IMG/VR virus record: IMGVR_UViG_3300042465_002016
Coordinates: 1 to 56,377 of that record
Length of the DNA: 56,377 bases
Strand: one strand, 5' to 3'
From: a virus
Lineage: Duplodnaviria > Caudoviricetes
The notes under the pieces were generated by a model, which was not told where the DNA came from, did no database searches, and was given only the letters and a program-made list of their open reading frames with translations. Each line of letters opens with the position of its first letter. Within the stretch, counting starts at the first letter, position 1. The translations under genes and the position numbers were made by a program. Of this stretch, positions 521 through 43,600 are shown piece by piece.

Positions 521-559
521 AGCTTATCTATTATACCAAACATTTATAAGTTTTCTCAG

Positions 560-2537: not shown

Positions 2538-2555
2538 AACCTCAAGTATACCATA

Positions 2556-6305: not shown

Positions 6306-6339
6306 ATATCTCCTACCCCTTATTATAGCAGGCTAAGGG

Positions 6340-8370: not shown

Positions 8371-8533
8371 TTAAGTATGCCACCTTTCTAATATTGGTTG
8401 AGTACTTCGTAGAATCGGAAGTAGTCCTAAGTATAGCATAGAATTAAAAACAATTCCACGCTCAGATTTAATCTATAAAGTTATTGTTTATAGTTAGTAC
8501 TTTTATATAACGAAAGTGTTATAAATAAAACAA

Positions 8534-9895: not shown

Positions 9896-9906
9896 TTGTT
9901 TCTCCC

Positions 9907-11997: not shown

Positions 11998-12016
11998 ATT
12001 TTTATTATACCATTTT

Positions 12017-14125: not shown

Positions 14126-14138
14126 ATAATCTCCTATT

Positions 14139-30667: not shown

Positions 30668-30699
30668 TTTTGACCCCTTTTTGGGGCGTGTCTGATGTG

Positions 30700-30867
30700 T
30701 TACTCGTCACACTCGCAAGGCTGAGCGTAGTCAAACTCGCAGAAGTAGCACCCCTGAGCCTCGAAATGCTTGTCGCAATAGTGACGGAATTGGATCTCGC
30801 CACAATGGATAAATTGGGTGTTATCAGTTAAATAGTACTGATTAACGGGATATAGGGTAAGTGACAT
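30700..30867 (-). CDS. Cys-rich (Zn-binding) protein, 55 aa
   Basis: HCGEIQFRHYC...GCYFCEFDY..PCEC; paralog of 35103-35309. Confidence 0.65.
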   Translation of the reverse strand: MSLTLYPVNQYYLTDNTQFIHCGEIQFRHYCDKHFEAQGCYFCEFDYAQPCECDE

Positions 30868-30897
30868 TTGGATGTCCTTTCTTTTTGTTATACCGCA

Positions 30898-30919
30898 ATT
30901 CTAGCAGGGGGTACTGACA
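30898..30919 (-). promoter_or_regulatory. PafBC/RecA-NDp-type promoter
   Basis: TGTCAG-N10-TAGAAT on minus strand. Confidence 0.75.
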
Positions 30920-30957
30920 TTTTGGCATGTATTTCGGGCGTGTCGCAAAACTATTTT

Positions 30958-30973
30958 TGTGATAAACCTCACA
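30958..30973. promoter_or_regulatory. CRP/GlxR-type box
   Basis: TGTGA-TAAACC-TCACA. Confidence 0.7.
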
Positions 30974-31090
30974 CGACAAATGCTAACAAAACGGACATGC
31001 TTCATTAGCAAAAGAGATCCCGGGCCGTGTCAAGTCGACACACCGATATAATTAAAATTGTTACGTAATTGTTATAATTTCCCCCGTTCT

Positions 31091-31122
31091 TGTGATATTC
31101 CTCACATGTGTTCTATGTCACA
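31091..31122. promoter_or_regulatory. Tandem CRP/GlxR-type boxes
   Basis: TGTGA-TATTCC-TCACA followed by TGTGT-TCTATG-TCACA. Confidence 0.7.
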
Positions 31123-31155
31123 ATGTCCGAATTGTTCTGATTGTACCCCTGAAAA

Positions 31156-31177
31156 TGTCAGACCCCTGTGTTAAACT
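31156..31177 (+). promoter_or_regulatory. PafBC/RecA-NDp-type promoter
   Basis: TGTCAG-N10-TAAACT. Confidence 0.75.
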
Positions 31178-31211
31178 TACAGTATAAAGAAAATAAAGAA
31201 AGGTGGTCAAA

Positions 31212-31457
31212 ATGACTACATTAAAAGAAAAAGGTTGGAAATTATCCTTCCGTGTTGAGTTAAACACAAATCCGAAATATCCTCTTATGAAAGAGTTTAG
31301 TACCTGCTTAGGGGTTATCTTTAATTCTGAGATACAGGCTAATGAGTACCTAGACCTTGTAGCCTTAACGGGTACAATTCTAGAAACTAACCTAGAGGAG
31401 ATCGAATATACTCCCTCTAAGTATGTCGCCTATGCTACTAATAGGAGTTGGGAGTGA
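31212..31457 (+). CDS. Hypothetical early protein
   Basis: GAAAGGT RBS before ATG 31212. Confidence 0.65.
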   Translation: MTTLKEKGWKLSFRVELNTNPKYPLMKEFSTCLGVIFNSEIQANEYLDLVALTGTILETNLEEIEYTPSKYVAYATNRSWE

Positions 31458-31496
31458 TGAGTATCACATCGGACACTATGCCTAAATAGGCAAAAA

Positions 31497-31518
31497 TGTC
31501 AGACCCTAATGCTAAACT
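31497..31518 (+). promoter_or_regulatory. PafBC/RecA-NDp-type promoter
   Basis: TGTCAG-N10-TAAACT; CRP-like AGTGA-N6-TCACA at 31453-31468. Confidence 0.75.
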
Positions 31519-31550
31519 TGCCATATAACGAAAACGAAAGGTGGTCAAAA

Positions 31551-31730
31551 ATGACTATACTAAAAACACAAGAGGTTATAGATAACGCCCTCTTATCCGT
31601 ACTAGAGCCTCACCTATACGGCAGAGCCTCTACCGCACTTATCCCATGCTCTAATTGTAGCGATAACTATTTAGAGGTATTTGCTAAAGATAAAAAGTTC
31701 ACTAAGTTCACATGTCAGGAGTGTAAATAA
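31551..31730 (+). CDS. Zn-ribbon hypothetical protein
   Basis: CSNC...CQEC; GAAAGGT RBS. Confidence 0.6.
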   Translation: MTILKTQEVIDNALLSVLEPHLYGRASTALIPCSNCSDNYLEVFAKDKKFTKFTCQECK

Positions 31731-31885
31731 TGAGTACCTTCGAAAAAATAGATTTGGCTTATGCCTTAGCAAAAGAAAAATATGGCGAGAGTAGTCACAC
31801 TTATGCTGCCCTATGGGGTAGCGCAAGCGTATTGCTTAGCGAAAGAGATTTAGATGTCGTAATCAGAGTAATGGAGAAAAAATAA
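31730..31885 (+). CDS. Hypothetical early protein (51 aa)
   Basis: LAKEKYG...YAALWG...ERDL; TAATG coupling. Confidence 0.65.
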   Translation: MSTFEKIDLAYALAKEKYGESSHTYAALWGSASVLLSERDLDVVIRVMEKK

Positions 31886-32061
31886 TGATAACACTTACAC
31901 TTACCTCATATAATGGTAACACTAAAAAAATGCCTTTCTATTCTAAGCAACAGGTACTAGATTTTCTTTCTGCGTTACCTTCACGCCTTAATAAAAACAC
32001 ATCTCTAAAAGTAGAGTGTGACATCTTAGCAATTAACGGAACTATTAGAGGAGATAAATAA
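31885..32061 (+). CDS. Hypothetical early protein (58 aa)
   Basis: MITLTLTS..G.TK.M.F.SK; TAATG coupling. Confidence 0.65.
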   Translation: MITLTLTSYNGNTKKMPFYSKQQVLDFLSALPSRLNKNTSLKVECDILAINGTIRGDK

Positions 32062-32252
32062 TGTTAGATTTTGATGTCGCTTTTGAAATTAAAACTTGGT
32101 TTGATGACATGCTAGACGAATCGTATAAGCCTTTTGAAATTGGTAACTTATCTTTTTCTGCCTCACAGATTTTGCGAGAGTGCGACCCTATTGCTTATCG
32201 CCAATCGCTATTAGATTTTGAGGACGCTATTAGAGAAAATGAAGAGGTATAA
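32061..32252 (+). CDS. Hypothetical protein
   Basis: FDDMLDE.Y...ASQIL...DPIAYR; coupled ORF. Confidence 0.65.
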   Translation: MLDFDVAFEIKTWFDDMLDESYKPFEIGNLSFSASQILRECDPIAYRQSLLDFEDAIRENEEV

Positions 32253-32534
32253 AAATGGAAATAGATTTATTCGGATTTGCTAACGCAATACAATTAGATC
32301 ATTTAAATAATGATCAACTTTTAGAATTAGAAAAAATACTTAACGGAATTGGAGAATAAAAAAAATGGATCTAACTTTTTTCACTGACGGAAGAGCTTTA
32401 TTTTTCTTAACTTTATTTTTTGCTTTTCGTTTTCTATATTTACTTTCTAAAGAATAGGGCCCGGGGCGCAAAAGTCAAATCGACACGCCGCTATATTTAA
32501 AATTGTTATTAAATTGTTACATAATTTTCTCCAA

Positions 32535-32550
32535 TGTGAGAATGATCACA
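32535..32550. promoter_or_regulatory. CRP/GlxR-type box
   Basis: TGTGA-GAATGA-TCACA. Confidence 0.7.
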
Positions 32551-32598
32551 AAAATAATTTAAGAAATGTCCGAATTGTTAGCATTTCTAATTTGATTT

Positions 32599-32620
32599 TG
32601 TCAGTCTAATAGTATAGACT
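32599..32620 (+). promoter_or_regulatory. PafBC/RecA-NDp-type promoter
   Basis: TGTCAG-N10-TAGACT. Confidence 0.75.
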
Positions 32621-32716
32621 TACATAGTAAGCAATTAAACGAAAGGTCAAAAATGACACTAGAGGAATATAAGGCGCACATAGAGGCGCAACGCAACGCA
32701 AGCAAGGCTCAGGCTT

Positions 32717-32738
32717 TGTCAGTCCTATCCGCTACAAT
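32717..32738 (+). promoter_or_regulatory. PafBC/RecA-NDp-type promoter
   Basis: TGTCAG-N10-TACAAT. Confidence 0.7.
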
Positions 32739-32765
32739 TAAAGAAATAAAGAAAGGTGACAACTA

Positions 32766-32975
32766 ATGTCAGCAAAACCATACACAATAATCAGCCTCTT
32801 AGAAGGAAAAAACTATCGCTCACACTCTCGCAATAATGAGGGAGTTATCATACACGCTACACCACGCCCAGATGTCTGGTACGGCTCAGAGTTTGAGGCG
32901 TATGCTATTGAGGTTCGCCCACCATGGGGAACACCAAACTTTTGGGCAACTGTCGCCGTTAAGGTAGGTGCGTAA
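32766..32975 (+). CDS. Hypothetical protein
   Basis: GAAAGGT RBS; 69 aa. Confidence 0.65.
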   Translation: MSAKPYTIISLLEGKNYRSHSRNNEGVIIHATPRPDVWYGSEFEAYAIEVRPPWGTPNFWATVAVKVGA

Positions 32976-33115
32976 TGATAAACTCAGTTCTAACAATTCC
33001 TTGCGAGGAATGCTACTCAACTGGCTTGATCTTTTTTGGATCAGGCGAGGAATATCATGTCGAGCCTTGTCAGTGCGTAGAGGTACAATTATTTAATACA
33101 CCCGAGAATAACTAA
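32975..33115 (+). CDS. Small Zn-finger-like protein (46 aa)
   Basis: CEECYSTG...PCQC; coupled start. Confidence 0.5.
   Translation: MINSVLTIPCEECYSTGLIFFGSGEEYHVEPCQCVEVQLFNTPENN
33068..33089 (+). promoter_or_regulatory. PafBC/RecA-NDp-type promoter
   Basis: TGTCAG-N10-TACAAT. Confidence 0.7.
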
Positions 33116-33130
33116 GGATAGGAAATATAA

Positions 33131-33340
33131 ATGACAATAGCAATCGAACACTCACTAAAGTTTGTAACTGAGTTTGATGAGAATCATCCAGTAGCAAAAC
33201 AATTTTTAGCACTTAGCGAATTGGATCAGATCCAACTTTTAGAATCAGTGCTACATAAATTTATAGTGCCTGCTTTAGAGCCAGCACTTGCTGAAGTAAA
33301 TGAACACGGCACTTACGCAATTCTAAAGGTGGTTAAATAA
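33131..33340 (+). CDS. Hypothetical protein
   Basis: ORF with RBS downstream of promoter. Confidence 0.6.
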   Translation: MTIAIEHSLKFVTEFDENHPVAKQFLALSELDQIQLLESVLHKFIVPALEPALAEVNEHGTYAILKVVK

Positions 33341-33541
33341 ATGATGACTCGTAAAGACTATGTTGCCACTGCTCAAATTCTTAGCAATTATTTTGCTACA
33401 TCTGTTTTTGATGAGCAAGGAGAAATTTTATTTGCTGATTTGGTAGATGAATTTTCTTTAATGTTCGAAACTGATAACGAAAGATTTGACGCAAACAGAT
33501 TTGCTATTGCTTGCTATAAAGAATTGGAGATGGCAAATTGA
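33341..33541 (+). CDS. Hypothetical phage protein
   Basis: MTRKDYV..A...F..DN.RFD..RF..AC, a pattern I recall from other phages. Confidence 0.7.
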   Translation: MMTRKDYVATAQILSNYFATSVFDEQGEILFADLVDEFSLMFETDNERFDANRFAIACYKELEMAN

Positions 33542-33690
33542 TTTTAGATAATGGAACACTAATCGCAATTGTAATTGCTTTAGCTGGATCGGTTGGAATG
33601 ATGATTGCTTTTTGGCAACGCAATATCCAATTAGAAAAAGAAATTCGCAGACTACAAGTTGCTTTGCGAAGTGAAAGAATAAAAAAGTAA
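33538..33690 (+). CDS. Small membrane protein (50 aa)
   Basis: TTG start after GGAG; TM then basic coiled segment. Confidence 0.5.
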   Translation: MILDNGTLIAIVIALAGSVGMMIAFWQRNIQLEKEIRRLQVALRSERIKK

Positions 33691-33695
33691 AATAA

Positions 33696-33723
33696 AAATC
33701 CTTAGCAAGATTTAAAACTGCTA
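33696..33723 (+). ncRNA. Mini H-type pseudoknot motif, copy 1
   Basis: AAATC-CT-TAGCA-A-GATTT-AAAAC-TGCTA. Confidence 0.7.
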
Positions 33724-33738
33724 GCACGGCCCGGGCCC

Positions 33739-33770
33739 TGTGATATTGATCACATGTGATATTTAACACT
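33739..33770. promoter_or_regulatory. Tandem CRP/GlxR-type boxes
   Basis: TGTGA-TATTGA-TCACA then TGTGA-TATTTA-ACACT. Confidence 0.7.
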
Positions 33771-33815
33771 TTACGTCTATTTGATATTTTTCCCCAATTG
33801 TGCTAAGATTAGTTT

Positions 33816-33962
33816 ATGACTAAGAAAACCGCTGAGGAATTACGCAGACTTATGGAACTTCGCCGTTCTAATGCTGCTACCCCTGTTAGGTCTAAGAAAG
33901 TTTATTCTCGAAAAGATAAATGTCAGTCTGCTATGCTAGAATTAAAAAATAACAACAACTAA
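33816..33962 (+). CDS. Small basic protein (48 aa), leaderless
   Basis: ELRRSNAA...SKKVYSRK; ATG 6 nt after TAAGAT. Confidence 0.55.
   Translation: MTKKTAEELRRLMELRRSNAATPVRSKKVYSRKDKCQSAMLELKNNNN
33921..33942 (+). promoter_or_regulatory. PafBC/RecA-NDp-type promoter
   Basis: TGTCAG-N10-TAGAAT. Confidence 0.75.
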
Positions 33963-33978
33963 GAAAGGTCGTGCCCCC

Positions 33979-34158
33979 ATGACATTTGAAAACGATGAAT
34001 TCTTTGATGAATTCTATTCTACTACCTGCCCTAAGTGTAATGAAAATTCCGTTGATCAATATATGCCTATGTGTGATCATTGCTGGTTAAATGAATTAGC
34101 AGATTCTGTTACTCATGAAGACATGGCCTTAGAAATGAGTCTTTCCCTTGACTACTAA
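33979..34158 (+). CDS. Acidic Zn-finger-like protein (59 aa)
   Basis: CPKC...CDHC; GAAAGGT RBS. Confidence 0.55.
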   Translation: MTFENDEFFDEFYSTTCPKCNENSVDQYMPMCDHCWLNELADSVTHEDMALEMSLSLDY

Positions 34159-34882
34159 TCCCCTGAAATTAAAACGTTCTAACGATAGAAAGGTCGCTAA
34201 CCTTGTCACTAAAAATGGAAAACAAGCAGCCATTGCTAATACCTTCGGCCTTCCCGCTGGAAAGGCTTATTCTTGTCCTGGCGCAACGACTGTTTGCGAG
34301 AGTGTCTGTTACGCAGGGAAACTTGAAAAGGTCTTCCCTTCTGTAAAAGTTAACCTGCTACACAACTGGGAACTATTGCGTAATGCTGATTACTTAACTA
34401 TGCTTAATTTGATCGGTGAAATGATTGCTGATTTTAAGGCTGATTGCGTAAAAAAGAATGCGCCCATGCTATTTCGTATCCATTGGGACGGTGACTTCTT
34501 TAATGATACTTATACTACCGCATGGTCTGATGTAATTAAACTTAATGCGGATGTACAATTCTGGGTTTACACTCGTGTTAAGTCTGCTGCTCTCATTCTA
34601 AAAGATATTGAAAACCTCTCACTGTATTTTTCTGCTGATAGCGAGAATGTTAAAACTGCTGTTGATCTAAAAATTAATAGCGGGGTCCGTATGGCATACC
34701 TTGCTAAGAATTTTGCTATAGGTCAAGCAGACATGAAAGAAATGGTTGGGCGCCCTGCTGCTAAATGTCCTGAGAATAATAAACAAATTCCATTGATTAG
34801 CGCTGCTGGCTCCGCATGCGTATCATGTTCACTTTGCGTTTATTCTAAGAGTGATATTATTTTTTCTGCGACTAAGAAATAA
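34148..34882 (+). CDS. GP88-family (Fe-S/radical-SAM-like) protein
   Basis: FGLPAG..CPGAT..C...CYA, FRIHWDGDFF, FWVYTR, C-terminal CxxCxxC. Confidence 0.75.
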   Translation: MTTNPLKLKRSNDRKVANLVTKNGKQAAIANTFGLPAGKAYSCPGATTVCESVCYAGKLEKVFPSVKVNLLHNWELLRNADYLTMLNLIGEMIADFKADCVKKNAPMLFRIHWDGDFFNDTYTTAWSDVIKLNADVQFWVYTRVKSAALILKDIENLSLYFSADSENVKTAVDLKINSGVRMAYLAKNFAIGQADMKEMVGRPAAKCPENNKQIPLISAAGSACVSCSLCVYSKSDIIFSATKK

Positions 34883-34957
34883 TAAAATGAACCATTGGTT
34901 ATATCTTTTTATTTTTCTTATAATTTTATTTATAACCCAGTGAAAGTGGGCCCGGGT

Positions 34958-34977
34958 TTATCCACAGATTATCCACA
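34958..34977 (+). promoter_or_regulatory. Two perfect DnaA boxes
   Basis: TTATCCACA at 34958 and 34969. Confidence 0.75.
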
Positions 34978-35045
34978 GGGTGATTTACGATGTGAGATTA
35001 AACACACCGAAATATTTTCCCAGTTTACGGCGTGTCGTAGAAAAA

Positions 35046-35067
35046 TGTCAGTGACCCATGGTAGGCT
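35046..35067 (+). promoter_or_regulatory. PafBC/RecA-NDp-type promoter
   Basis: TGTCAG-N10-TAGGCT; CRP-like TGTGA-N6-ACACA at 34991. Confidence 0.75.
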
Positions 35068-35102
35068 TACAGTATAAAGAAAAAGAAAGAAGGTTGCCCC
35101 CT

Positions 35103-35309
35103 ATGGCTACAGTTATAGATAAAACAGATCACTATTTAATTTGGGATATATCTCAGATTTGCTGCGATGAAATACAATTCCGTTATCAGTGCCGTGTATG
35201 CGATGAAATGATGGGTTGCTATTTCTGCTCATTTGATTACTCAGAACCCTGCGATTGTCAGTACGACATGGTAGTATCAGAAATATCAACTACGAAAGAA
35301 GGAAACTAA
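35103..35309 (+). CDS. Cys-rich (Zn-binding) protein
   Basis: CCDEIQFRYQC...GCYFCSFDY..PCDC. Confidence 0.65.
   Translation: MATVIDKTDHYLIWDISQICCDEIQFRYQCRVCDEMMGCYFCSFDYSEPCDCQYDMVVSEISTTKEGN
35256..35277 (+). promoter_or_regulatory. PafBC/RecA-NDp-type promoter
   Basis: TGTCAG-N10-TAGTAT. Confidence 0.7.
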
Positions 35310-35518
35310 TGGAATATAACTACTCACTTACCACTTCATATGACGGAGAATTGGTCAATACCTTAAAGGTAGCAGACCTCTTGGAGATTGTAAACGCTTG
35401 GAATCTATGCGTGGACTATGGCACTGCTAAAGAATATGCTACCTATAATTTGTCAGACCCAACGGGTAAGATGTTTACTAAGACCTTTCACCGCAACGGA
35501 ACAGTAGGAGTAAAGTAA
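35309..35518 (+). CDS. Hypothetical protein
   Basis: AAGGA RBS; TAATG coupling. Confidence 0.6.
   Translation: MEYNYSLTTSYDGELVNTLKVADLLEIVNAWNLCVDYGTAKEYATYNLSDPTGKMFTKTFHRNGTVGVK
35451..35472 (+). promoter_or_regulatory. PafBC/RecA-NDp-type promoter (intragenic)
   Basis: TGTCAG-N10-TAAGAT. Confidence 0.6.
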
Positions 35519-35685
35519 TGGCAAGATTTGAGTTTAACACTTTCATAGATGTAGAAGCAGAAAACTATGATGAGGCTATTGATGTTTTTCAATTCCAATT
35601 AAAATATGGAATAGATAAAGATAATGTTTATGTCGCAGACATAAAAGAATTAACTATTTACAACAACGAAGGCGTAGAGGTATAA
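35518..35685 (+). CDS. Hypothetical protein (55 aa)
   Basis: AGGAG RBS; coupled start. Confidence 0.55.
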   Translation: MARFEFNTFIDVEAENYDEAIDVFQFQLKYGIDKDNVYVADIKELTIYNNEGVEV

Positions 35686-35688
35686 ATA

Positions 35689-35976
35689 ATGGGATCAGTA
35701 ACAGCAATTGGATTAGCAGACACAACACTAGACCTTGAAACGCAATTGCGTTATCACTTACAGGGTAATCATTATCCACCAGTACCCGTTGAAATGGTTG
35801 CCCCTTGTATTGAAGCAATAGATGCCGCCTATGATGAGGACTATGAGCGTGTAATTGATATGCCTATGGTTGGTGACTTTCAGATACGTTGGCGTGGTTT
35901 GACCCAAGCACCAGCGTGGGCTATAATTGAACAACACAACCTGTCATGGTTTATTGACCCAGTAGATGAGGACTAA
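35689..35976 (+). CDS. Hypothetical phage protein
   Basis: HLQGNHYPPVP..M..PC..AI. Confidence 0.7.
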   Translation: MGSVTAIGLADTTLDLETQLRYHLQGNHYPPVPVEMVAPCIEAIDAAYDEDYERVIDMPMVGDFQIRWRGLTQAPAWAIIEQHNLSWFIDPVDED

Positions 35977-36107
35977 TGCTATATATGCCCCCTATAAATA
36001 AATGCCCATGTGATGAACACGAGTGTATGAACCAAGATGACTACACTATTGATGAGTATATGTGCGAGGAATGTTTTATGGACTGCGTAGAAATGGATAA
36101 TGCCTAA

Positions 36108-36350
36108 ATGAATGCTACAATGAAACCTATGGAATTAATCTTTGCTGATCGTCTAAACCCAGGGCAACTAATGCTAAATGATTTAATTGGTATTGAGAAT
36201 GATGTTGTTGAAGTTATTGGAGTTAATGATACTAATAACGGAGATGATTACCAAATTGAGTTCATTGATGAGTTTGGTGAAAAAGATATTGTTAATCTAA
36301 AACATGATGAGTTAGTTTCGCTATATGTTTATGTTGAGGATGATGAGTAA
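36108..36350 (+). CDS. Hypothetical acidic protein
   Basis: 80 aa ORF. Confidence 0.55.
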   Translation: MNATMKPMELIFADRLNPGQLMLNDLIGIENDVVEVIGVNDTNNGDDYQIEFIDEFGEKDIVNLKHDELVSLYVYVEDDE

Positions 36351-36415
36351 TTAGCTATACCCTGCGAAAGCAGGCCCGGGCCGCCCAACCTAAGATGATT
36401 GTCAAACCTATTAAG

Positions 36416-36431
36416 TGTGAGATTTATCACT
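36416..36431. promoter_or_regulatory. CRP/GlxR-type box
   Basis: TGTGA-GATTTA-TCACT upstream of TTGACA-N17-CATACT. Confidence 0.6.
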
Positions 36432-36538
36432 TCCCCGATTTACGATACGAATTGACATTTCCTGGATTTTCTGTCATACTTAGGTATAACCAAATAACAA
36501 TTCCAAATAGTGAGATTATCAGATAATAATTTGATAAA

Positions 36539-36560
36539 TGTCAGTAGGAAATGTTATACT
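36539..36560 (+). promoter_or_regulatory. PafBC/RecA-NDp-type promoter
   Basis: TGTCAG-N10-TATACT. Confidence 0.75.
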
Positions 36561-36593
36561 TAAAATATCAACCAAACAGAAAGGTAATACAAA

Positions 36594-36758
36594 ATGACAG
36601 TAGCAACTGCTCTCTACAATGTAGGCGACACCTACACAACCCAAAAGTCAAAGGTTACAGGAACGATTGTATCTATTGACCCACAAGCAAATGGTAATGT
36701 TCGAGTAAAGTTAGATGTTAATGGCGAACACCGCTACACAACTTGGACAGCAAAGTAA
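36594..36758 (+). CDS. Small beta-rich protein (54 aa)
   Basis: MTVATALYNVGD...RYTTWTAK; GAAAGGT RBS. Confidence 0.65.
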   Translation: MTVATALYNVGDTYTTQKSKVTGTIVSIDPQANGNVRVKLDVNGEHRYTTWTAK

Positions 36759-36809
36759 TCTAATTACTAAGTGCCTAGCGTACAGGCACTATAAATAAGT
36801 GGCGTGAAC

Positions 36810-36837
36810 TATCCTGAGCAAGATACCAAAAGGCTCA
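36810..36837 (+). ncRNA. Mini H-type pseudoknot motif, copy 2
   Basis: TATC-CT-GAGC-AA-GATA-CCAAAAG-GCTC. Confidence 0.65.
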
Positions 36838-36843
36838 CCAAAA

Positions 36844-36865
36844 TGTCAGACCAACCCCCTATAAT
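36844..36865 (+). promoter_or_regulatory. PafBC/RecA-NDp-type promoter
   Basis: TGTCAG-N10-TATAAT. Confidence 0.75.
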
Positions 36866-36900
36866 ATAAATACACCACAAACAGAAAAGGAAAATAACAA

Positions 36901-37323
36901 ATGGCTAGAGCAAAAGCAATAAATGTAAAAATCGCAACACCTAAAATCATCACAGCACTAGAAGCCTCCCTTGCTAAGTTAGAGGCAGACTACTCAACAC
37001 AAGAAAAAAACGAAGCAAAGTATCTAAAGGCAGTAGAAAAGTGGAAAGCAGATGTCTTTGCCTTCGCTATGGCTAATGTCAAGAAGTCTTTTAACTTACG
37101 CACTAATTATCGTTCATACAACGAAACACTAAACATTGACTTTGACCTAAAGGTTACAGAGTCAGAAATGCCAAAAGAGCCTGAGCGTGACTTTGAGTTT
37201 ATTCACGCAAGCACTTATCGTGAGTCTAAGAAAGAATTGTCAAACGCAATTCGTATTCTAAAGATGACAGATGAGGAAACAGTTAATACCTCAACTTACA
37301 ACGCAGTATCCGAATACCTATAA
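36901..37323 (+). CDS. Hypothetical protein
   Basis: AAAGGA RBS; ends AIRILKMTDEETVNTSTY...YL. Confidence 0.75.
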   Translation: MARAKAINVKIATPKIITALEASLAKLEADYSTQEKNEAKYLKAVEKWKADVFAFAMANVKKSFNLRTNYRSYNETLNIDFDLKVTESEMPKEPERDFEFIHASTYRESKKELSNAIRILKMTDEETVNTSTYNAVSEYL

Positions 37324-37344
37324 TTTCCATTTCCTATGGGAACT

Positions 37345-37370
37345 GTCCTGAGCATGACTAGAAACTGCTC
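37345..37370 (+). ncRNA. Mini H-type pseudoknot motif, copy 3
   Basis: GTC-CT-GAGCA-T-GAC-TAGAAAC-TGCTC. Confidence 0.7.
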
Positions 37371-37397
37371 AACACAAAATCTTAGAAAGGTAGCCCA

Positions 37398-37661
37398 ATG
37401 ATTAGCACAATGTTACAGATTAAAGAAGCAACAGAGGAAGCCCTCTTTGATCCTGATCTAATGAGTTTAGCACGATTCATGTTTGAAAATCGTGAGTATA
37501 TGGAAACTGAGGAATTTGCTCAATTACTATTTAAATACAGTTCCTCACTGTCAGCCCTAACAGCAACACTTGTTTCACAGGTTTGTTTATCACACTCAGA
37601 TATGTCAGACATGGTTGCTACAATTAAAGAAATGAAACAACTAACAGAGAGTATGGAGTAG
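37398..37661 (+). CDS. Hypothetical protein
   Basis: GAAAGGT RBS. Confidence 0.65.
   Translation: MISTMLQIKEATEEALFDPDLMSLARFMFENREYMETEEFAQLLFKYSSSLSALTATLVSQVCLSHSDMSDMVATIKEMKQLTESME
37603..37624 (+). promoter_or_regulatory. PafBC/RecA-NDp-type promoter (intragenic)
   Basis: TGTCAG-N10-TACAAT, 40 nt before next start. Confidence 0.65.
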
Positions 37662-37664
37662 CCC

Positions 37665-38069
37665 ATGAATACAACAGCAATCGCAACAGAGGATTTTCTT
37701 AAGGCCACTATCGCTAAGCAAGAGGAGCGCATTAATGATTTGACTGCACATGCCCAGCGCTTAGCGCAGCGTGACTATGACACAGCAGGCACCTTACAAA
37801 AACTGCGGGATGACCTTCATGAATGGACTATGAACGCATTGGAAGAGGCTTCAATCAATGAAGCAGAAGCGCAAGAGATTGCCGACATTGCTGGTTTTGA
37901 ATTAACACAAGAATTTGAATTAGAAGTATCAGTTCAATATTCAATAACCGTTAACGCTAAGAATTTAGAAGAGGCCATGAACGCAATTCATGATTTAGAT
38001 CTTGATTCTATTTCATATGACGAACCAATCACATATCTTTCGGGGACGATTGACCGCATAGATATTTAG
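37665..38069 (+). CDS. Hypothetical acidic protein
   Basis: GGAG RBS; 134 aa. Confidence 0.7.
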   Translation: MNTTAIATEDFLKATIAKQEERINDLTAHAQRLAQRDYDTAGTLQKLRDDLHEWTMNALEEASINEAEAQEIADIAGFELTQEFELEVSVQYSITVNAKNLEEAMNAIHDLDLDSISYDEPITYLSGTIDRIDI

Positions 38070-38084
38070 TAGGGGGCTACTAAT

Positions 38085-38111
38085 GGACCTGAGCACGTCC
38101 TTAAACTGCTT
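38085..38111 (+). ncRNA. Mini H-type pseudoknot motif, copy 4
   Basis: GGAC-CT-GAGCA-C-GTCC-TTAAAC-TGCTT. Confidence 0.7.
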
Positions 38112-38156
38112 CACAAATCCCGGGGGCAAAAATCTTAATTTGTCAAATCTATAAGC

Positions 38157-38172
38157 TGTGATTAAGATCACC
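38157..38172. promoter_or_regulatory. CRP/GlxR-type box
   Basis: TGTGA-TTAAGA-TCACC. Confidence 0.6.
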
Positions 38173-38219
38173 TAGAAAAATGTCCAGATTGTCCACATCT
38201 AACTATCCTAATTTGTATT

Positions 38220-38241
38220 TGTCAGTCTATCCTGCTATACT
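38220..38241 (+). promoter_or_regulatory. PafBC/RecA-NDp-type promoter
   Basis: TGTCAG-N10-TATACT. Confidence 0.75.
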
Positions 38242-38276
38242 TAAAATTCAACAACAACAGAAAAGGAAATAAACTC

Positions 38277-39293
38277 ATGGCACATGACATCGAAACTCAA
38301 AATGGCGTAGCAAGTTTTGCTTCATTTAGAGAACCTGCTTGGCATGGATTGGGTACTGTATTCACAGATGAAAAATCTACCACAGAAATGTTGGCTGCTG
38401 CTAACCTTAATGGGTGGAATGTTCGTCTAGAGGATTTAGAAACCCCAGCACATCTAGCAAGCGACAAGGCGTACCAGTATGTCTTGCGTACTAATCCCAC
38501 AGATAACACTCAAACCGATATTCTCGGAATTGTTGGTGAGCGTTATCACCCATTACAGAATGAGGATCTATTTTCATTCGGTGACAATATCCTAGACGGC
38601 GGGGGTCGTTGGGAAACTGCTGGCTCAATCAAGGGTGGTCGTGTCGTATTCGGTGCGTTAGCACTAGAGCGTGAAACAATTCTTGACCCTAATGGTGTTG
38701 CCGATAAGGTTAAAACTTATTTGCTCATCAACACATCACATGACGGCTCGATTGCTATTCAAGCAAGTATCACGCCAGTTCGTGTTGTATGCGCTAACAC
38801 TCTCAACCTTGCTCTTGGTTCAATCAAGAAAAAGAATGGTGTCAAGCAATCTTTCAAGATTCGCCATACTCAAACTGCTAACGGCAAGGTACAAATTGCT
38901 CGTGAAACTCTTGGCATGGCTAACAAGTATATGGACGAATTCGACATCATGGCTAAGGCTATGATCGAAAAGGAAGTCAATGCTAAGTCATTCAATGACA
39001 TCATTCTTGCTGCTTATCCTAAGCCAGACAAGGATTCTAAAGGCTCAATCAAAAAGTGGGAAAATAAAGTTGGCATGGTCAATGATATTTACACTGGTGA
39101 GTTTAATGGAATGATTGCTGGTAATGCGTGGGGTGCGTTTAATGCTCTCACCGAACGCCTTGACTGGTATCGTTCTGCTCGTGGTGGTAATAACGAATCT
39201 ATGCTCGCAAGCGCAAGCGGATTTGATCCTGCGATTAACGCAGAAAAAAATCGTTTGCTAAAAGTTGTTCAAAATGTTATGGCGTTAGCCTAA
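38277..39293 (+). CDS. DUF932 (TIGR03299-like) phage/plasmid protein
   Basis: REPAWHGLG, LQN...F.F.D, WETAGS..GG..VF, NTSHDGS, TPVRVVCANTL, RHT, WGAFNA.TE. Confidence 0.88.
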   Translation: MAHDIETQNGVASFASFREPAWHGLGTVFTDEKSTTEMLAAANLNGWNVRLEDLETPAHLASDKAYQYVLRTNPTDNTQTDILGIVGERYHPLQNEDLFSFGDNILDGGGRWETAGSIKGGRVVFGALALERETILDPNGVADKVKTYLLINTSHDGSIAIQASITPVRVVCANTLNLALGSIKKKNGVKQSFKIRHTQTANGKVQIARETLGMANKYMDEFDIMAKAMIEKEVNAKSFNDIILAAYPKPDKDSKGSIKKWENKVGMVNDIYTGEFNGMIAGNAWGAFNALTERLDWYRSARGGNNESMLASASGFDPAINAEKNRLLKVVQNVMALA

Positions 39294-39297
39294 CAAA

Positions 39298-39325
39298 AAA
39301 TCCTGAGCATGATTTCAAACTGCTC
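39298..39325 (+). ncRNA. Mini H-type pseudoknot motif, copy 5
   Basis: AAATC-CT-GAGCA-T-GATTT-CAAAC-TGCTC. Confidence 0.7.
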
Positions 39326-39332
39326 ACCATTA

Positions 39333-39406
39333 GGTCTGTTAGCTCAGTTGGTTAGAGCGCTACCCTGTCACGGTAGAGGTCGTGGGTTCAAGTCCCATAC
39401 AGATCG
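39333..39406 (+). tRNA. tRNA-Asp (GTC)
   Basis: Cloverleaf: acceptor GGTCTGT/ACAGATC, anticodon loop CTGTCAC, TTCAA T-loop; no encoded CCA. Confidence 0.92.
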
Positions 39407-39556
39407 CAAGAGCCCGGGCTTGATATTTTTATGACATTTTCTTGCAAACCTTATTACGGTAAGATGACATTTTTCCCAGTTTCTAATTACGATACAGTTG
39501 ACTTTTTCCCCAAACCATGCGATAATTAGTACATACCACAAACCACAAGGAGAATA

Positions 39557-39715
39557 ATGCTTGGCTATACACAAAAAGATTTAGCAGATATGACCTATGG
39601 AGTAGCAAATGCTGATCTGTTAATCAATGCAGATGAGAATCCTGCTATTCATAACTATTTAGTTAAGACAGAAGAATTTTTAAATGGCCTACGAACAGAA
39701 GGGTACTTTGACTAA
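39557..39715 (+). CDS. Hypothetical protein (52 aa)
   Basis: AGGAG RBS; TTGACT-N17-GATAAT promoter upstream. Confidence 0.55.
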   Translation: MLGYTQKDLADMTYGVANADLLINADENPAIHNYLVKTEEFLNGLRTEGYFD

Positions 39716-39957
39716 TGTTTGAATCTAACTGGATTAAGTATGAATGGCTATGTACTGAGTGTGATAGTTTAATGGAACTTAGCACTTATTGGAAAGAGGA
39801 GTATGTAACTACCCCTGTTTGTCCCTGCCCACATCAGGCTATTATTGGGATTGGCAGGCATGTCCTGGAGTCATCATCCTTTGTTTCATACCACAGTGAT
39901 GTGACCAGTATCACACCTACGCCGCTTGTCAAAATCAACTCAAACCCCTATAATTAA
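39715..39957 (+). CDS. Zn-ribbon-like hypothetical protein
   Basis: CTEC...CPC. Confidence 0.5.
   Translation: MFESNWIKYEWLCTECDSLMELSTYWKEEYVTTPVCPCPHQAIIGIGRHVLESSSFVSYHSDVTSITPTPLVKINSNPYN
39900..39954 (+). promoter_or_regulatory. CRP box plus SigA-type promoter
   Basis: TGTGA-CCAGTA-TCACA then TTGTCA-N17-TATAAT. Confidence 0.65.
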
Positions 39958-40114
39958 TATATGGACCTAAAAACAATAACAGAGTATATAAACATACATA
40001 AGGTATCAATGGAACAAGACTTAGAGACAATTAAAAACTCTGGTCGTTGGGCTAATGATAGAGTTGCCTTAGAAGGTGCTATCAACGTATCTAATCATTA
40101 CTTGGAGTATATCA

Positions 40115-40396
40115 ATGAGCGATAAGTATCCTTTTATACCTGACCATTTAACTAAGGCATTAGAAGATATCTCTATTCCATTAATTGATATCATGCATGG
40201 TGAACTAAAGAATCTAATGCTTATTACTGAACAAATATGGGAGGCTGCTAAAAACGGGGACCCATTAGAAGAAGATGAGTATGATGAATCAGATGATTAT
40301 CATCAGGGGTACCTACAGGCCTTGACAGATATGTACTGCCTAACGTATAATTTAAGTATTGACCGTAAAAATATTGAGGAGAAATATAATGCCTAA
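40115..40396 (+). CDS. Hypothetical acidic protein
   Basis: GGAG RBS before ATG 40115. Confidence 0.6.
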   Translation: MSDKYPFIPDHLTKALEDISIPLIDIMHGELKNLMLITEQIWEAAKNGDPLEEDEYDESDDYHQGYLQALTDMYCLTYNLSIDRKNIEEKYNA

Positions 40397-40568
40397 GTGT
40401 TTAGATTGTGGTAACACTAAATTCTTTACTTACTGTGAGAACAGTTACAACGAAGCCGAGTATGACGAAAGCGGTGAGATGATAGATGTAATCTATAAAG
40501 AGTACCACGAGCCAGAGGAAGCCACCTGTAAAGAGTGTGAGTCTATTAACATTGAGGGTAAAGTATGA
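40389..40568 (+). CDS. Zn-ribbon protein
   Basis: CLDCGN...CKECES; AGGAG RBS. Confidence 0.6.
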   Translation: MPKCLDCGNTKFFTYCENSYNEAEYDESGEMIDVIYKEYHEPEEATCKECESINIEGKV

Positions 40569-40897
40569 GTATCCTAATTGAAATGGACTATGATGAATGG
40601 TTTGATACCTACAAGCCAATACCCAATCATATAGACACTAATGCTTCATTTAGCGATGGAGAGTATGGCTATATGTTTGAAACATATGGAGATGAACTAA
40701 CATTTATACAGGGGGCCAATGATAACGTTATTTGGACTTATGGGGATGGTGATGATGGAGGCACGTATATCTGGTCTGGTTATAGCTTTGTTAATAGGAT
40801 TGGATATTTTATTACTGAACGGCCTTGGGTAAATGATGTTCAGGCTTTAGTTATCCCAGCAGATGATGAACTTGACAATGATGAGGATGAGGAGTAA
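40565..40897 (+). CDS. Hypothetical phage protein
   Basis: YKPIPNH...FETYG...IWT...G..FVNRIGYFITE. Confidence 0.7.
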   Translation: MSILIEMDYDEWFDTYKPIPNHIDTNASFSDGEYGYMFETYGDELTFIQGANDNVIWTYGDGDDGGTYIWSGYSFVNRIGYFITERPWVNDVQALVIPADDELDNDEDEE

Positions 40898-40906
40898 AAT
40901 TGTAGT

Positions 40907-41254
40907 ATGACCAAAAAAATAACACTAGACCTAGACCTACACTACGCTGGCATGATCGCAATTGACTCAGGGCAAGCAATGGTTGGCGACCCTGCCTACC
41001 TTGACAACTGGGATGATGACAAAACTAAAGAATGGAATCTCGAAGGCAAAGTAGGCCAGTACTCTTATCAAGGTGCTAGCGCTACTACTCTTACTAAGAA
41101 CTATGGGCAATTAGAAACTGCTACTGCTGTGGTATTCAGTACTGGACTTGGTGACGGACTATATCCTGTCTATGTTCATACAGACGAGGAAGGCACAATT
41201 ACTAAGGTAGTTATTGATTTCGAAGGGGATATTGACCACTATGAATCCGACTGA
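40907..41254 (+). CDS. DUF4241-like protein
   Basis: IDSGQAMVGDP...STGLGDGLYPVY. Confidence 0.6.
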   Translation: MTKKITLDLDLHYAGMIAIDSGQAMVGDPAYLDNWDDDKTKEWNLEGKVGQYSYQGASATTLTKNYGQLETATAVVFSTGLGDGLYPVYVHTDEEGTITKVVIDFEGDIDHYESD

Positions 41255-41537
41255 TAAAGATAAACTAAACCAATGTATATCCCTTCTAGAATCTACGGAC
41301 CTATTCCCTTCACTAGTATGGCTATGGACATGGGATGTTGTTAAAAGTATTTTAGGCGACCCTGAGTATAAAGTAAATGTAACAGAGGAGCAAATGTGGG
41401 GGCACCTATGTGAGGCCGTAGAGAACGGCATGGGTTTCTCTATGGAGTTTGGTTCGGAGTCACTTCACGAGGATATCAGGGAGTGGATGTTGGAGAAAGA
41501 ATACATCTCAGACCCATACGATGAAGATGACGACTAA
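41241..41537 (+). CDS. Hypothetical protein
   Basis: ORF in operon. Confidence 0.6.
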   Translation: MNPTDKDKLNQCISLLESTDLFPSLVWLWTWDVVKSILGDPEYKVNVTEEQMWGHLCEAVENGMGFSMEFGSESLHEDIREWMLEKEYISDPYDEDDD

Positions 41538-41709
41538 CAGATTAGATAAGCGTTTATCTGAATATACATTCGATGAACTATGCGTTGCCATATGTGAATG
41601 GTGCAAGGACCCTGATATGAATATGTCAGAGTACATGTGCCCTAACTGCTACAAAGATGACGAACAGATCTGCACAGAATGCTGCGGATGTTATGATGAG
41701 GAGAACTAA
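41521..41709 (+). CDS. Cys-rich hypothetical protein
   Basis: CEWC, CPNC, CTECCGC; start uncertain. Confidence 0.5.
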   Translation: MKMTTNRLDKRLSEYTFDELCVAICEWCKDPDMNMSEYMCPNCYKDDEQICTECCGCYDEEN

Positions 41710-42065
41710 TGGGAGCACGTATTAACTTTATATTTAAAGACTCAGAGTCAGGGCCTAGTGTAGTACTATATAGTCATTGGGGCCAGATGAACTGGCAACC
41801 TGATATCGCTGCAGCCCTAACACATTCAAGGGCCCGTTGGTCAGACTCTTCATATGCCACCCGCATGATGATTAGTTATCTTATTCAAGACAGTGTTCTA
41901 GACGAGCACGGTTTTGGAATCTATGCAATTAACAATGAGTCATGGGACCTTGGCGAGCAAAGCATTGTTGTTGACTTTGTTAATAATACTATTACTGATA
42001 TTCACCCTGTTGAATTTAACGCATTTATTAATGCATATGCACCTCATCTATCACTAACTAACTAA
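41709..42065 (+). CDS. Hypothetical phage protein
   Basis: MGARINF...LYSHWG...RWSD.SY..R. Confidence 0.7.
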   Translation: MGARINFIFKDSESGPSVVLYSHWGQMNWQPDIAAALTHSRARWSDSSYATRMMISYLIQDSVLDEHGFGIYAINNESWDLGEQSIVVDFVNNTITDIHPVEFNAFINAYAPHLSLTN

Positions 42066-42075
42066 GGAGAAACAA

Positions 42076-42234
42076 ATGGCTAAGAAATCAAAAGCAAAAA
42101 CAATCCCGTACCTAGAAACATGGGATACCCGTTACGGTAAGTCTCAACGTCTTGTACTTCGTAAGAATGGTAAGTTTGTCGATAATACCAGTCTTACAGC
42201 CCTAAAGCAAGGGGAACGGGTCACCTCTCGCTAA
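42076..42234 (+). CDS. Small basic protein (52 aa)
   Basis: AAGGAG RBS. Confidence 0.6.
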   Translation: MAKKSKAKTIPYLETWDTRYGKSQRLVLRKNGKFVDNTSLTALKQGERVTSR

Positions 42235-42313
42235 TATAAAGATGAGGGGCGCATGCTTGTGGTGAACTTGCGCCTCTCTCTTTTATTTGCTATAATGGAC
42301 AGGAGAGGAAAAC

Positions 42314-42550
42314 ATGTATCGAATTACTCGCAGTACCCATACCACTAAAGAGGAAAAGGTTGCTCAAAAAATCTCGGTATTGTTATCAGACTTTACTCTT
42401 GATCTAGAAAAGGTAGGATACTACCTAGCAAAGGCAATCCCACTTCTATTGTTTAAGCGGTCACTAGAAGTATTAGAGTCAGCACAATTCCAAGATGATA
42501 TAATGGAACAAGAGAGAATAGGATATGACCATGACAGACTTTTATCTTAA
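42314..42550 (+). CDS. Hypothetical protein
   Basis: RBS and TGCTATAAT promoter upstream. Confidence 0.65.
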   Translation: MYRITRSTHTTKEEKVAQKISVLLSDFTLDLEKVGYYLAKAIPLLLFKRSLEVLESAQFQDDIMEQERIGYDHDRLLS

Positions 42551-42788
42551 GTGTGACATCTTAAAAGATTTTGCTGTAAGGTATGAAGAAGAGTATAAAG
42601 AATTTATTGAGTTCAACGATATAGGTTTTCCAATAGCGTACTTCCATTCCGAAGGTTTAGTAATGGCTAAGGTTGATGGGCAACGTTATGTCGAAGAAAC
42701 ATGGGAATTACTATTAGCAGAGATGGACGTTGATGATACAGGGTTTGAAGATCTTGATCATCTGATAGAAAGTATTCCACATCAATAA
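42525..42788 (+). CDS. Hypothetical acidic protein
   Basis: F.EFNDIG.P.AY...ETW..LL. Confidence 0.65.
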   Translation: MTMTDFYLKCDILKDFAVRYEEEYKEFIEFNDIGFPIAYFHSEGLVMAKVDGQRYVEETWELLLAEMDVDDTGFEDLDHLIESIPHQ

Positions 42789-42806
42789 TTTTTAGCTACC
42801 TGGTGT

Positions 42807-42836
42807 GGCCCTTCGGGGCCCCCCGGGATTTTTTTT
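42807..42836 (+). terminator. Putative terminator ending the early region
   Basis: GGCC-CTTCGG-GGCC hairpin followed by CCCGGG and T8 run. Confidence 0.6.
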
Positions 42837-42839
42837 GCA

Positions 42840-43600
42840 AATTTATCAAACCATCAAACCTTAAAACCCTATTACGAACCAAACCTTATTTTTCCCAGAA
42901 CTTTATTACGATAGACAAATAATTTTCCCCAATCATAGACAAACCTTCAAACCAGCTATAAAGGTTTTGTATTGTATCTTATACTACTGACATTACGAAC
43001 TGACTTATTTATCCCCCGCCCCAGAAATGACTGCCAGGATAGCTACACATCCCGCAGCGGGGGATCAAAAGATATACCAAATTCCCTAGTATAAAAGACA
43101 TTACGAATAACAAACCTTTTTCCCTGGTTTCTAGATATTTATAAAACCTTTCTATTATTTTTTATTAATTAATTGGACATTTCGAGCAATTTTGTATAGG
43201 GTTTTTAGGCTATAAAGGTTTGACAAATAGAGGTTTGAATGGTATACTCCACAGCTGGGAAGGGAAGGTTTGACAAAGGAAAGGTTTTGTGGTAGGGTTT
43301 TAAAACGTCCTGGACATTACGAACCCTTCTGTCTAAATGCTCCATACTCCACTTCCCTCCCTTTTCCTCCACTCAAAGATAAATCTAAAAAATATCAGTA
43401 AGATCTATCCTGTGGATAACTACAGTAAACCTGTGGATAACTTTACCAAACCATGCCTTCTCCCTGTGGATAACTCTATGATATGATGGACATATGAAAC
43501 CTTTATTAGTCATTTTGCTTGGTCTATTTATCTTTGTAAACTACATGGCATATCTCCAACAAATCCGTATGACCTCATAAACATTACGATAGATCAAATC
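42840..43600. other. Repeat-rich, largely non-coding, origin-like region
   Basis: Repeated ATTACGA, AAACC(T)/AGGTTT, TTTTCCC; AT-rich stretch; DnaA boxes TGTGGATAA at 43411, 43432, 43465. Confidence 0.55.

Follow-up and report, generated by a model that had tools for sequence, protein, structure and literature searches.

The early region of an uncultured lake actinophage, recorded in IMG/VR as IMGVR_UViG_3300042465_002016, is divided into gene units by a short GC-rich, usually palindromic word that stands once at each unit boundary and is here called the junction box. The record is a single contig of 56,377 bases, which was analyzed over its whole available length (the window) and probably represents about half of a genome of 100-119 kb, judged from complete relatives. 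In the window the word is CCCGGG, and it delimits a seven-unit array of small co-directional genes (U1-U7). In relatives the same place is occupied by other words. The word is uniform within a genome, differs between genomes, is nearly exclusive to the early region, and covaries with a pair of small hypervariable genes, gpA and gpB. Our tentative interpretation, to which we give somewhat less than even confidence, is that the box is bound by a lineage-specific, probably dimeric DNA reader that gpA/gpB may encode in whole or in part.

In the window, CCCGGG was found eight times (Table 1), compared with an expectation of 1.60 ± 1.27, and none of 100 dinucleotide-preserving shuffles reached eight. 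The tetramer CCGG also occurred eight times, each time within a CCCGGG, whereas 39.5 ± 6.1 copies were expected. An earlier reading of the letters without database searches (the sequence-only reading) had listed eight CCCGGG sites and noticed none elsewhere. The recount returned identical coordinates, and the absence of further copies was borne out for all 56,377 bases, the only DNA of this genome available. The same reading had described all sites as intergenic. Seven of the eight lay outside all plus-strand open reading frames (ORFs) of at least 45 amino acids, but the site at 34951 fell inside a mechanically called 60-amino-acid ORF with a TTG start (34895-35077), for which support was not found. 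The non-coding fraction of 31019-42827 is 0.18, giving a probability of about 6e-6 for the observed intergenic placement. Gaps between sites ranged from 1221 to 3409 bases. By our own arithmetic, the probability that none of the seven gaps is shorter than 1221 bases when six interior points are placed at random is (1-7x1221/11803)^6, i.e. about 4e-4. The sites are thus over-dispersed, as would be expected if each closes one gene unit, but the quasi-periodic spacing that had been proposed did not hold up as true periodicity. Counts, intergenic placement, and unit boundaries together confirmed that the sites are non-random and delimit gene modules. The degenerate word CYCGRG was considered as the real word of the window and rejected; its ninth site, a CCCGAG at 33101, lies outside the junctions.

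To compare relatives, 393 relatives of the DUF932 protein of the array were collected from IMG/VR, 80 loci of 11-21 kb each were retained, and their boxes were typed at the junction upstream of the DUF932 gene (junction box 6). The flanks of this junction could be aligned across the 80 loci, but the word between them differed. CCCGGG, CCGG, RGCGCY, GACGTC, CACGTG, CCTAGG/CTAG, CTCGGG (= CYCGRG), TTCGA(A/C), GCCAGCC, CGGWCCG, and others were found there, and GGCGCC and TCGA are further words listed among the types in relatives. One lineage (L023) carries a non-palindromic G-rich box, GGGGCGGGG, and the types CTCGGG, CCTAGC, and GCCAGCC are asymmetric and occur mainly in one orientation. CCGG was absent from 68 of the 80 loci. 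CCCGGG was kept at the same places in seven close relatives, and five loci carried plain CCGG in 8-11 copies at equivalent places. The idea that the sites are positionally conserved in relatives therefore stood for the place of the box, which was kept at aligned junctions, but for CCCGGG itself only in close relatives, other words being used elsewhere. Separately, an extra box type, GGTCGGTG, was seen 3' of gpB in L204, L213, L215, L217, and L194, where gpB is 49-54% identical to CACGTG-type references; the catalogue of words thus exceeds the approximately 11 types listed.

Within a genome, the boxes agreed with one another. The word typed at the DUF932 junction was seen again past the tRNA-Asp (49 of 52 distinct junction sequences) and past gpB, which closes U7 (44 of 45). 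With both junctions pooled, the word was identical at 93 of 97, and words of the other types were almost absent. The boxes were also close to exclusive to the early region, which spans 13.8 kb in the complete records. Given as early-region sites out of all sites in the record, the counts were 8 of 8 for GACGTC in G001, 5 of 5 for CYCGRG in G011, 6 of 7 and 7 of 8 for the same word in G013 and G012, 9 of 9 for CCGG in G016, 4 of 4 for GCCAGCC in G019, 4 of 5 for CACGTG in G006, and 7 of 9 for TTCGAM in G014. Exclusivity was weak for the CTAG-based types (CCTAGG in G018, 7 of 12; CCTAGS in G017, 6 of 16). For the control hexamer CTGCAG, just 1-6 of 44-69 sites fell in the early region.

The nucleotide tree of DUF932 required at least 22 changes of box type. 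Although the three CYCGRG genomes have a common word, their core proteins are only 61-64% identical. A pan-genome of the ten complete relatives and the window contained no family private to these three genomes and one 200-amino-acid family common to two of them, and no G011 protein had G012 and G013 as its two nearest relatives. The many switches and the recurrence of one word in sub-lineages of 61-64% identity indicate that the word has been replaced often and in concert. The sequence-only reading had been right to see the sites as non-random, intergenic, module-delimiting, and presumably read by something; a lineage-private word replaced in concert had not been foreseen by it.

The gene pair at the end of U7 was singled out by a covariation test over the early-region protein families present in at least 40 typed loci. 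Nine box types were distinguished, so that the minimum is 8 changes. Box type changed 10 times on the gpB tree and 12 times on the gpA tree, as opposed to 20-29 times on the trees of 21 other early-region families. Adjacency to a box is not the cause of these low counts, because the DUF932 protein family required 26 changes although its gene is flanked by two boxes. A second sample of 80 further loci, biased to the clade of the window, was fetched with gpB. Among new loci whose nearest typed gpB was of the CCGG/CCCGGG type at 60-80% identity, 10 of 15 distinct cases had CCGG directly past gpB; when this identity was below 60%, the predicted CCGG was seen there in 8 of 23. A first pass for type-specific genes among the ORFs of the 80 loci, confounded by phylogeny, gave nothing clear.

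Within genomes the word is constant and between them it varies; it is palindromic, avoided elsewhere, and switched in concert. Such a combination calls for a trans-acting reader with sequence specificity, and the gpA/gpB pair is the best candidate for this reader or a part of it. Box-type covariation is the sole evidence tying the putative reader genes to the boxes. From these patterns we infer binding, the identity of the reader, an effect on transcription, and a selective driver. A reader bound at every junction could shut down or insulate the early units jointly. A superinfecting relative with the same word could be a further target; such action would favor rare words and would explain the frequent concerted switches. 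An analogy is offered by the terminal repeat of a cultured relative, the Streptomyces phage Jay2Jay, in which a 15-bp palindrome, TGTCCGnCCCGGACA, follows a GGGCCC-TTCG-GGGCCC hairpin about 25-30 bases before a -35 element. This palindrome looks like a typical operator and supports an operator-like role for the boxes. In the Jay2Jay locus (L087, bases 1-10800), the hairpin and TGTCCGnCCCGGACA were seen at nearly every intergenic junction of the terminal repeat, often with an extra GGACA repeat and upstream of a TTGnnn-N18-TAGACT promoter.

Several observations weigh against a reader encoded by gpA/gpB. In the second sample, the predicted word was missing from 5 of the 15 new loci at 60-80% identity and from 15 of the 23 below 60%. 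The boxes of L002 are RGCGCY, but its gpA is 96% identical to that of the window and its gpB is nearest to a CCCGGG-type gpB; in L044 and L079 a CACGTG-like gpB is found together with boxes of other types, and the gpB proteins of the CYCGRG genomes fall into at least two clades. A third family of about 112 amino acids, encoded 3.0 kb past the DUF932 start, needed 6 changes for 6 types on 36 tips. Its homoplasy is equally low, and the covariation signal is thus not unique to gpA/gpB. Low homoplasy could in part come from weaker recombination in hypervariable genes. All 50 distinct members of the gpB family are strongly acidic, with an isoelectric point of about 4.1, which does not resemble a DNA-binding protein. 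Neither protein matched a PHROG, a Pfam family even at E <= 5, or any DNA-binding family or fold; Foldseek searches against the PDB returned nothing at E <= 0.001, and the best Z scores in a wide VIA-align search, 4.7 and 4.2, are in the noise range for helical proteins. Finally, recognition of a contiguous word of 4-6 bp, with degenerate forms such as RGCGCY and CYCGRG, is a trait more of restriction-modification enzymes than of repressors. The fold predicted for gpB comprises five helices (pLDDT 94.5) and that for gpA a disordered N terminus and three helices (pLDDT 82.5). The gpB family has 1889 clusters, every one unnamed, and no named protein-atlas cluster was obtained for either protein. 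A prediction of the gpA-gpB complex scored 0.01, which counts neither way. A ribbon-helix-helix assignment of gpA, which the disordered N terminus followed by helices might have suggested, was supported by no search and is not claimed.

A bolder version would make the boxes and the hypervariable pair an address-and-reader system. A small, fast-evolving phage module would read, with a specificity like that of restriction enzymes, 4-7-bp palindromes that survive only at early-operon boundaries and would mark, insulate, or cut all early units; address and reader would have been re-coded together more than 20 times, through exclusion between co-infecting relatives or a changing host restriction repertoire. 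We regard this version as unlikely. If a private word and its reader do control the entire early region, a natural series of orthogonal DNA word/reader pairs would exist in an abundant family of lake actinophages, and regulatory sites would here have clearly been re-coded in concert. The Jay2Jay-like Streptomyces phages are cultivable and have an analogous junction palindrome, so the question is open to bench tests.

Table 1. Junction boxes and associated genes of the early array (window coordinates)
Feature	Position	Strand	Remarks
Junction box 1, CCCGGG	31019..31024		Upstream of U1; kept as CCCGGG in close relatives L001 and L006
Junction box 2, CCCGGG	32460..32465		Between U1 and U2; flanks kept, word replaced in L002, L064, L078
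Junction box 3, CCCGGG	33730..33735		Between U2 and U3; TGTGA-N6-TCACA begins 4 bases later
Junction box 4, CCCGGG	34951..34956		Between U3 and U4; two exact TTATCCACA follow, at 34958 and 34969
Junction box 5, CCCGGG	36375..36380		Immediately 3' of a CCTGC-GAAA-GCAGG hairpin
Junction box 6, CCCGGG	38119..38124		16 bases 5' of promoter-like TTGTCA-17-TAAGAT (38140-38168), upstream of DUF932 gene
Junction box 7, CCCGGG	39413..39418		6 bases past tRNA-Asp
Junction box 8, CCCGGG	42822..42827		3' arm of terminator-like hairpin, then T8; 34 bases past stop of 87-amino-acid gene
Seven-unit array U1-U7, co-directional small genes	31019..42827	+	Units delimited by boxes; early/host-takeover-like
DUF932 gene, 338 amino acids	38277..39293	+	Anchor for fetching 80 related loci
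tRNA-Asp(GTC)	39333..39407	+	Structured element preceding box 7
gpA, 78 amino acids, hypervariable	42314..42550	+	Box-type covariation
gpB, 87 amino acids, hypervariable, very acidic	42525..42788	+	Box-type covariation; overlaps gpA by 26 bases

The boxes stand out against a background of strong palindrome avoidance. Tetramers were compared in 11 records, i.e. ten complete relatives and the window. CCGG was missing from each of the nine complete relatives whose box word is a different one. CGCG was absent from six of the ten complete relatives and present in at most nine copies in the rest, AGCT was absent from 8 of the 11 records and present in 418 copies in G011, and TCGA was absent from G011 and G013. 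In G001, 22 of the 64 hexamer palindromes were missing altogether. The window contained no CGCG, 59 ACGT, and 47 TCGA, about 189 copies being expected for each of the latter two. The core tetramer of a genome's own box tended to be rarer in that genome, ACGT being lowest in G001 and G006 and CTAG in G017 and G018. The on/off loss of whole tetramers suggests the signature of restriction pressure, possibly changing, on unmodified DNA. That one restriction-like word should be kept at every unit boundary under exceptionally strong restriction pressure is a paradox, and it bears on the trade-off that phages make between evasion of defense and regulation.

The same background lends weight to a different explanation, in which the boxes are the last genomic targets of a restriction-modification (R-M) type enzyme, from the host strain or from an unrecognized phage gene, that methylates, nicks, or cuts at unit boundaries; timed shut-off of early genes, processing of the terminal repeat, and stimulation of recombination are possible purposes. 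The box words look like known Type II specificities. A Type II site has 4-8 bp and is usually palindromic and possibly degenerate, and the box words, including RGCGCY, CYCGRG, and CGGWCCG, have this form. The extreme selection on CCGG, CGCG, AGCT, and TCGA is of the restriction type, the rarity of a genome's own core tetramer points the same way, and the same word in unrelated sub-lineages, as in the CYCGRG genomes, is consistent with an external determinant taken from a limited set. However, no DNA methyltransferase or restriction endonuclease family was recognized among the 137 ORFs of the complete G001 at E <= 1e-5, a search of a kind that restriction enzymes often escape. The early or terminal region should be the most dangerous place for a host restriction site, which would be a liability there; according to the accessible part of PMC10644984, resistance of T5-like phages to R-M systems requires that the terminal repeats be free of such sites. 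Covariation with gpA/gpB is not explained by such an enzyme itself, unless the two proteins are matched inhibitors or subunits, and the L023 lineage uses a non-palindromic box. On balance we consider an R-M type enzyme improbable, but it is the main rival to a lineage-specific reader, and the nuclease or methylase target put forward by the sequence-only reading stays alive with it.

T5-like programmed nicks, which had been put forward together with it, are neither supported nor refuted by the assembled contigs. The contigs of the lake runs showed no position where many molecules begin or end, a signal that contigs cannot reveal. In T5, BF23, phiKMV-like phages, and tf, nick sites resemble the boxes in being a short private word of limited copy number with positions conserved among relatives, and co-evolution of enzyme and nick site has been proposed (PMC3517423, in the part available). 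The nick sites of tf and the phiKMV-like phages are described in the same part of that paper as one-stranded, their consensus, like that of T5, as asymmetric, and the sites as spread over much of the genome. The boxes, in contrast, lie in one region, are known from sequence alone, and are palindromes in the case of CCCGGG and most words of the relatives, rather than asymmetric words on one strand.

The surroundings of the boxes were compared at all eight junctions. A box lies 3' of the structured end of a unit (hairpin, pseudoknot-like element, or tRNA) and about 15-100 bases 5' of the next promoter/operator block. The sequence-only reading had claimed such a context for most sites, and part of this was retained. 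The tRNA-Asp ends 6 bases before 39413, a strong hairpin of -19.7 kcal/mol followed by T8 was obtained by RNA folding at 42822, and TGTGA-N6-TCACA (CRP/GlxR-like, at most one mismatch) was enriched, with 13 copies compared with 2.3 expected, all within 30696-40551 and mostly right after boxes. The part that fell concerned the other hairpins: among seven junctions folded, only 42822 stood out, and the remaining upstream hairpins folded no better than shuffles. An Rfam scan returned tRNAs only. A GC-rich stem-loop with a T-run, as in an intrinsic terminator, was found at 42822 alone, the other seven junctions having a weak hairpin, no hairpin, or a tRNA. A small pseudoknot-like element, GGAC..GAGCA..GTCC..TGCT, was seen by eye just upstream of junctions 33730 and 38119. 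Promoter-like hexamers lay 16-90 bases 3' of several boxes, their total (55 compared with 42 ± 6 in shuffles) being not above shuffles. Mean column identity over the 206-base flanks was 45%, and near the center only the CC and GG columns were invariant; junctions 1 and 2 are similar to each other. Promoter/operator blocks differed from junction to junction. All box types share an oriented context of A-run, T-run, G, word, and C-rich bases.

Other recurrent words were noted in the vicinity. Further operator-like words recurring after boxes were TTGTCAAnTCGACACGCCG, GGGCGTGTCG, and GGACA repeats. Exact copies of TTATCCACA, a DnaA-box-like word, numbered five in the record and formed two clusters, one at 34958-34977 with two copies in tandem directly past box 4 and one at 43411-43473 with three copies on the minus strand, about 600 bases past the last box and within a 21-base tandem repeat.

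The common oriented context is one of the reasons to ask whether the boxes are passive structural elements without a sequence-specific reader, for example a GC clamp past the 3' structure that aids termination or insulates supercoiling. The word forms the 3' arm of the terminator stem at 42822, and the plain G-rich box GGGGCGGGG of the L023 lineage would serve as well. A clamp, however, needs no particular word, yet the word was identical at 93 of 97 junctions within genomes; it is usually palindromic in genomes that avoid many palindromes (22 of 64 hexamers absent in G001), and most upstream hairpins of the window folded no better than shuffles. We consider a purely passive role highly improbable.

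Shuffling of units offers another explanation. The boxes might sit in cassettes like the PeSL elements of T4-like phages (terminator/promoter cassettes with a stem-loop), the uniform word being maintained by gene conversion with no dedicated reader. In 54 loci U3, which carries a GP88-family gene, and U4 were in reverse order relative to the window and the 11 loci that resemble it; the borders of these units have boxes, and in L009 a box separates the swapped blocks. Joints in lake contigs skipped approximately one unit, from 31215 to 32651 (1435 bases, one run) and from 35012 to 36511 (1498 bases, two runs), and may reflect unit-deletion variants. PeSL stem-loops are lineage-specific as well, GN-loop-CN or A3-4G3-loop-C3T3-4 (PMC4122927, accessible part). 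On the other hand, just 6 bases are common to all eight junctions, which is too short for homologous exchange, and the long similarity between PeSL cassettes has no counterpart in flanks of 45% mean column identity. Unit order was otherwise stable over the 80 loci, the two sides of the contig joints were only 21-35 letters long, a length prone to unreliable joints, and gene conversion explains neither near-exclusivity nor palindromy nor the link to gpA/gpB. The crossover points suggested by the sequence-only reading thus drew some support from the U3/U4 swap with boxes at its borders and from the few short contig joints, but this support is weak, and we judge exchange cassettes quite improbable as an account of the boxes.

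With a phage-encoded reader as the favored interpretation, the closest known relatives in function would be the stoperators of Cluster A mycobacteriophages such as L5 and Bxb1, where one short word is likewise repeated at many intergenic sites of an actinophage genome. One phage protein reads the stoperator word, and word and reader change together between immunity groups (PMC6550527 and PMC9283540, in the parts available). An intergenic word repeated within each genome was found here as well (8 of 8 sites in the window; 49 of 52 and 44 of 45 junctions in relatives). Covariation with a phage DNA-binding repressor would have its counterpart in gpB and gpA (10 and 12 changes versus 20-29), with L002, L044, and L079 as exceptions and no DNA-binding fold found. 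Stoperators are asymmetric 13-bp sites oriented with transcription, lie genome-wide in temperate phages, and have a known monomeric repressor, whereas the boxes are words of 4-7 bp, mostly palindromic, at about eight junctions of one 12-14-kb region in an apparently lytic large phage with a putative reader; as sites, they do not have the form of stoperators.

In placement, the boxes are more like PeSLs, which also lie between small early genes in plastic regions, form lineage-specific stem-loops in terminator/promoter cassettes, and are linked to unit shuffling (PMC4122927 and PMC2839356, accessible parts). PeSLs, however, act by homology and have tens of bases in common, a near-consensus promoter among them; the boxes share the 6-base word only, their promoter/operator blocks vary between junctions, and elsewhere in the genome the word does not occur. 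A third likeness is to the pre-early or host-takeover regions in the long terminal repeats of T5 and BF23, which measure about 10-13 kb and consist of small genes in many short units with their own promoters. The terminal-repeat host-takeover region of SPO1 is also comparable. Neither a lineage-private palindrome at each unit boundary of such repeats nor junction boxes of the present kind were found described in the literature searched, most subscription journals lying outside its coverage. The boxes thus most resemble stoperators in working, PeSLs in placement, and restriction sites in word type, and they match the full definition of none of these. Genome-private repeated control sites are a known kind, to which the boxes would belong.

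The relatives place the window in a family of large lake actinophages. Gene products of the record include a portal protein, a ribonucleotide reductase, seven paralogous 2-oxoglutarate-Fe(II) (2OG-Fe(II)) oxygenases, tail fiber proteins, and five tRNAs. Complete relatives measure 100-119 kb, and the annotated one (G001) encodes WhiB, the Pol III alpha subunit, RecA, DnaB, and primase; lake actinophages encoding whiB are already known (PMC10914622, part available). Assembled contigs carrying the stretch were present in 24 lake-water runs. A megablast search of the region against the phage collection gave no match, and PMC12143481 makes no mention of restriction-modification in Nanopelagicaceae hosts. 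With Streptomyces phages of about 130 kb, for example Jay2Jay, the window shares 45-52% identity in its portal and DUF932 proteins. In these Jay2Jay-like phages, the DUF932 gene is 1.3-2.6 kb away from the end of the genome and occurs twice per record, i.e. in a long terminal repeat. The U1-U7 array is probably homologous to this terminal-repeat region, and in the phage of the window it may likewise form part of a terminal repeat, as its likeness to the Streptomyces phages suggests.

Some further observations concern the array and its surroundings. Repeats of CAAACC/ATCAAACC and ATTACGA were seen past the last box (42830-43500). Many contigs of relatives stop 4.3-5.2 kb past the DUF932 start; several end, and several complete records begin, about 1-3.6 kb from the region of the last box. 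A genome end or a terminal-repeat boundary may lie beyond this box. The DUF932 protein was 88-100% identical across the 80 loci, as compared with only 61-77% for core proteins of the complete relatives, so the early array is either far more conserved than the core or exchanged between lineages. Outside the array, the seven 2OG-Fe(II) oxygenase paralogues are consecutive on the minus strand at 9203-14852 and adjoin the genes for a FabG-like reductase and the ribonucleotide reductase.

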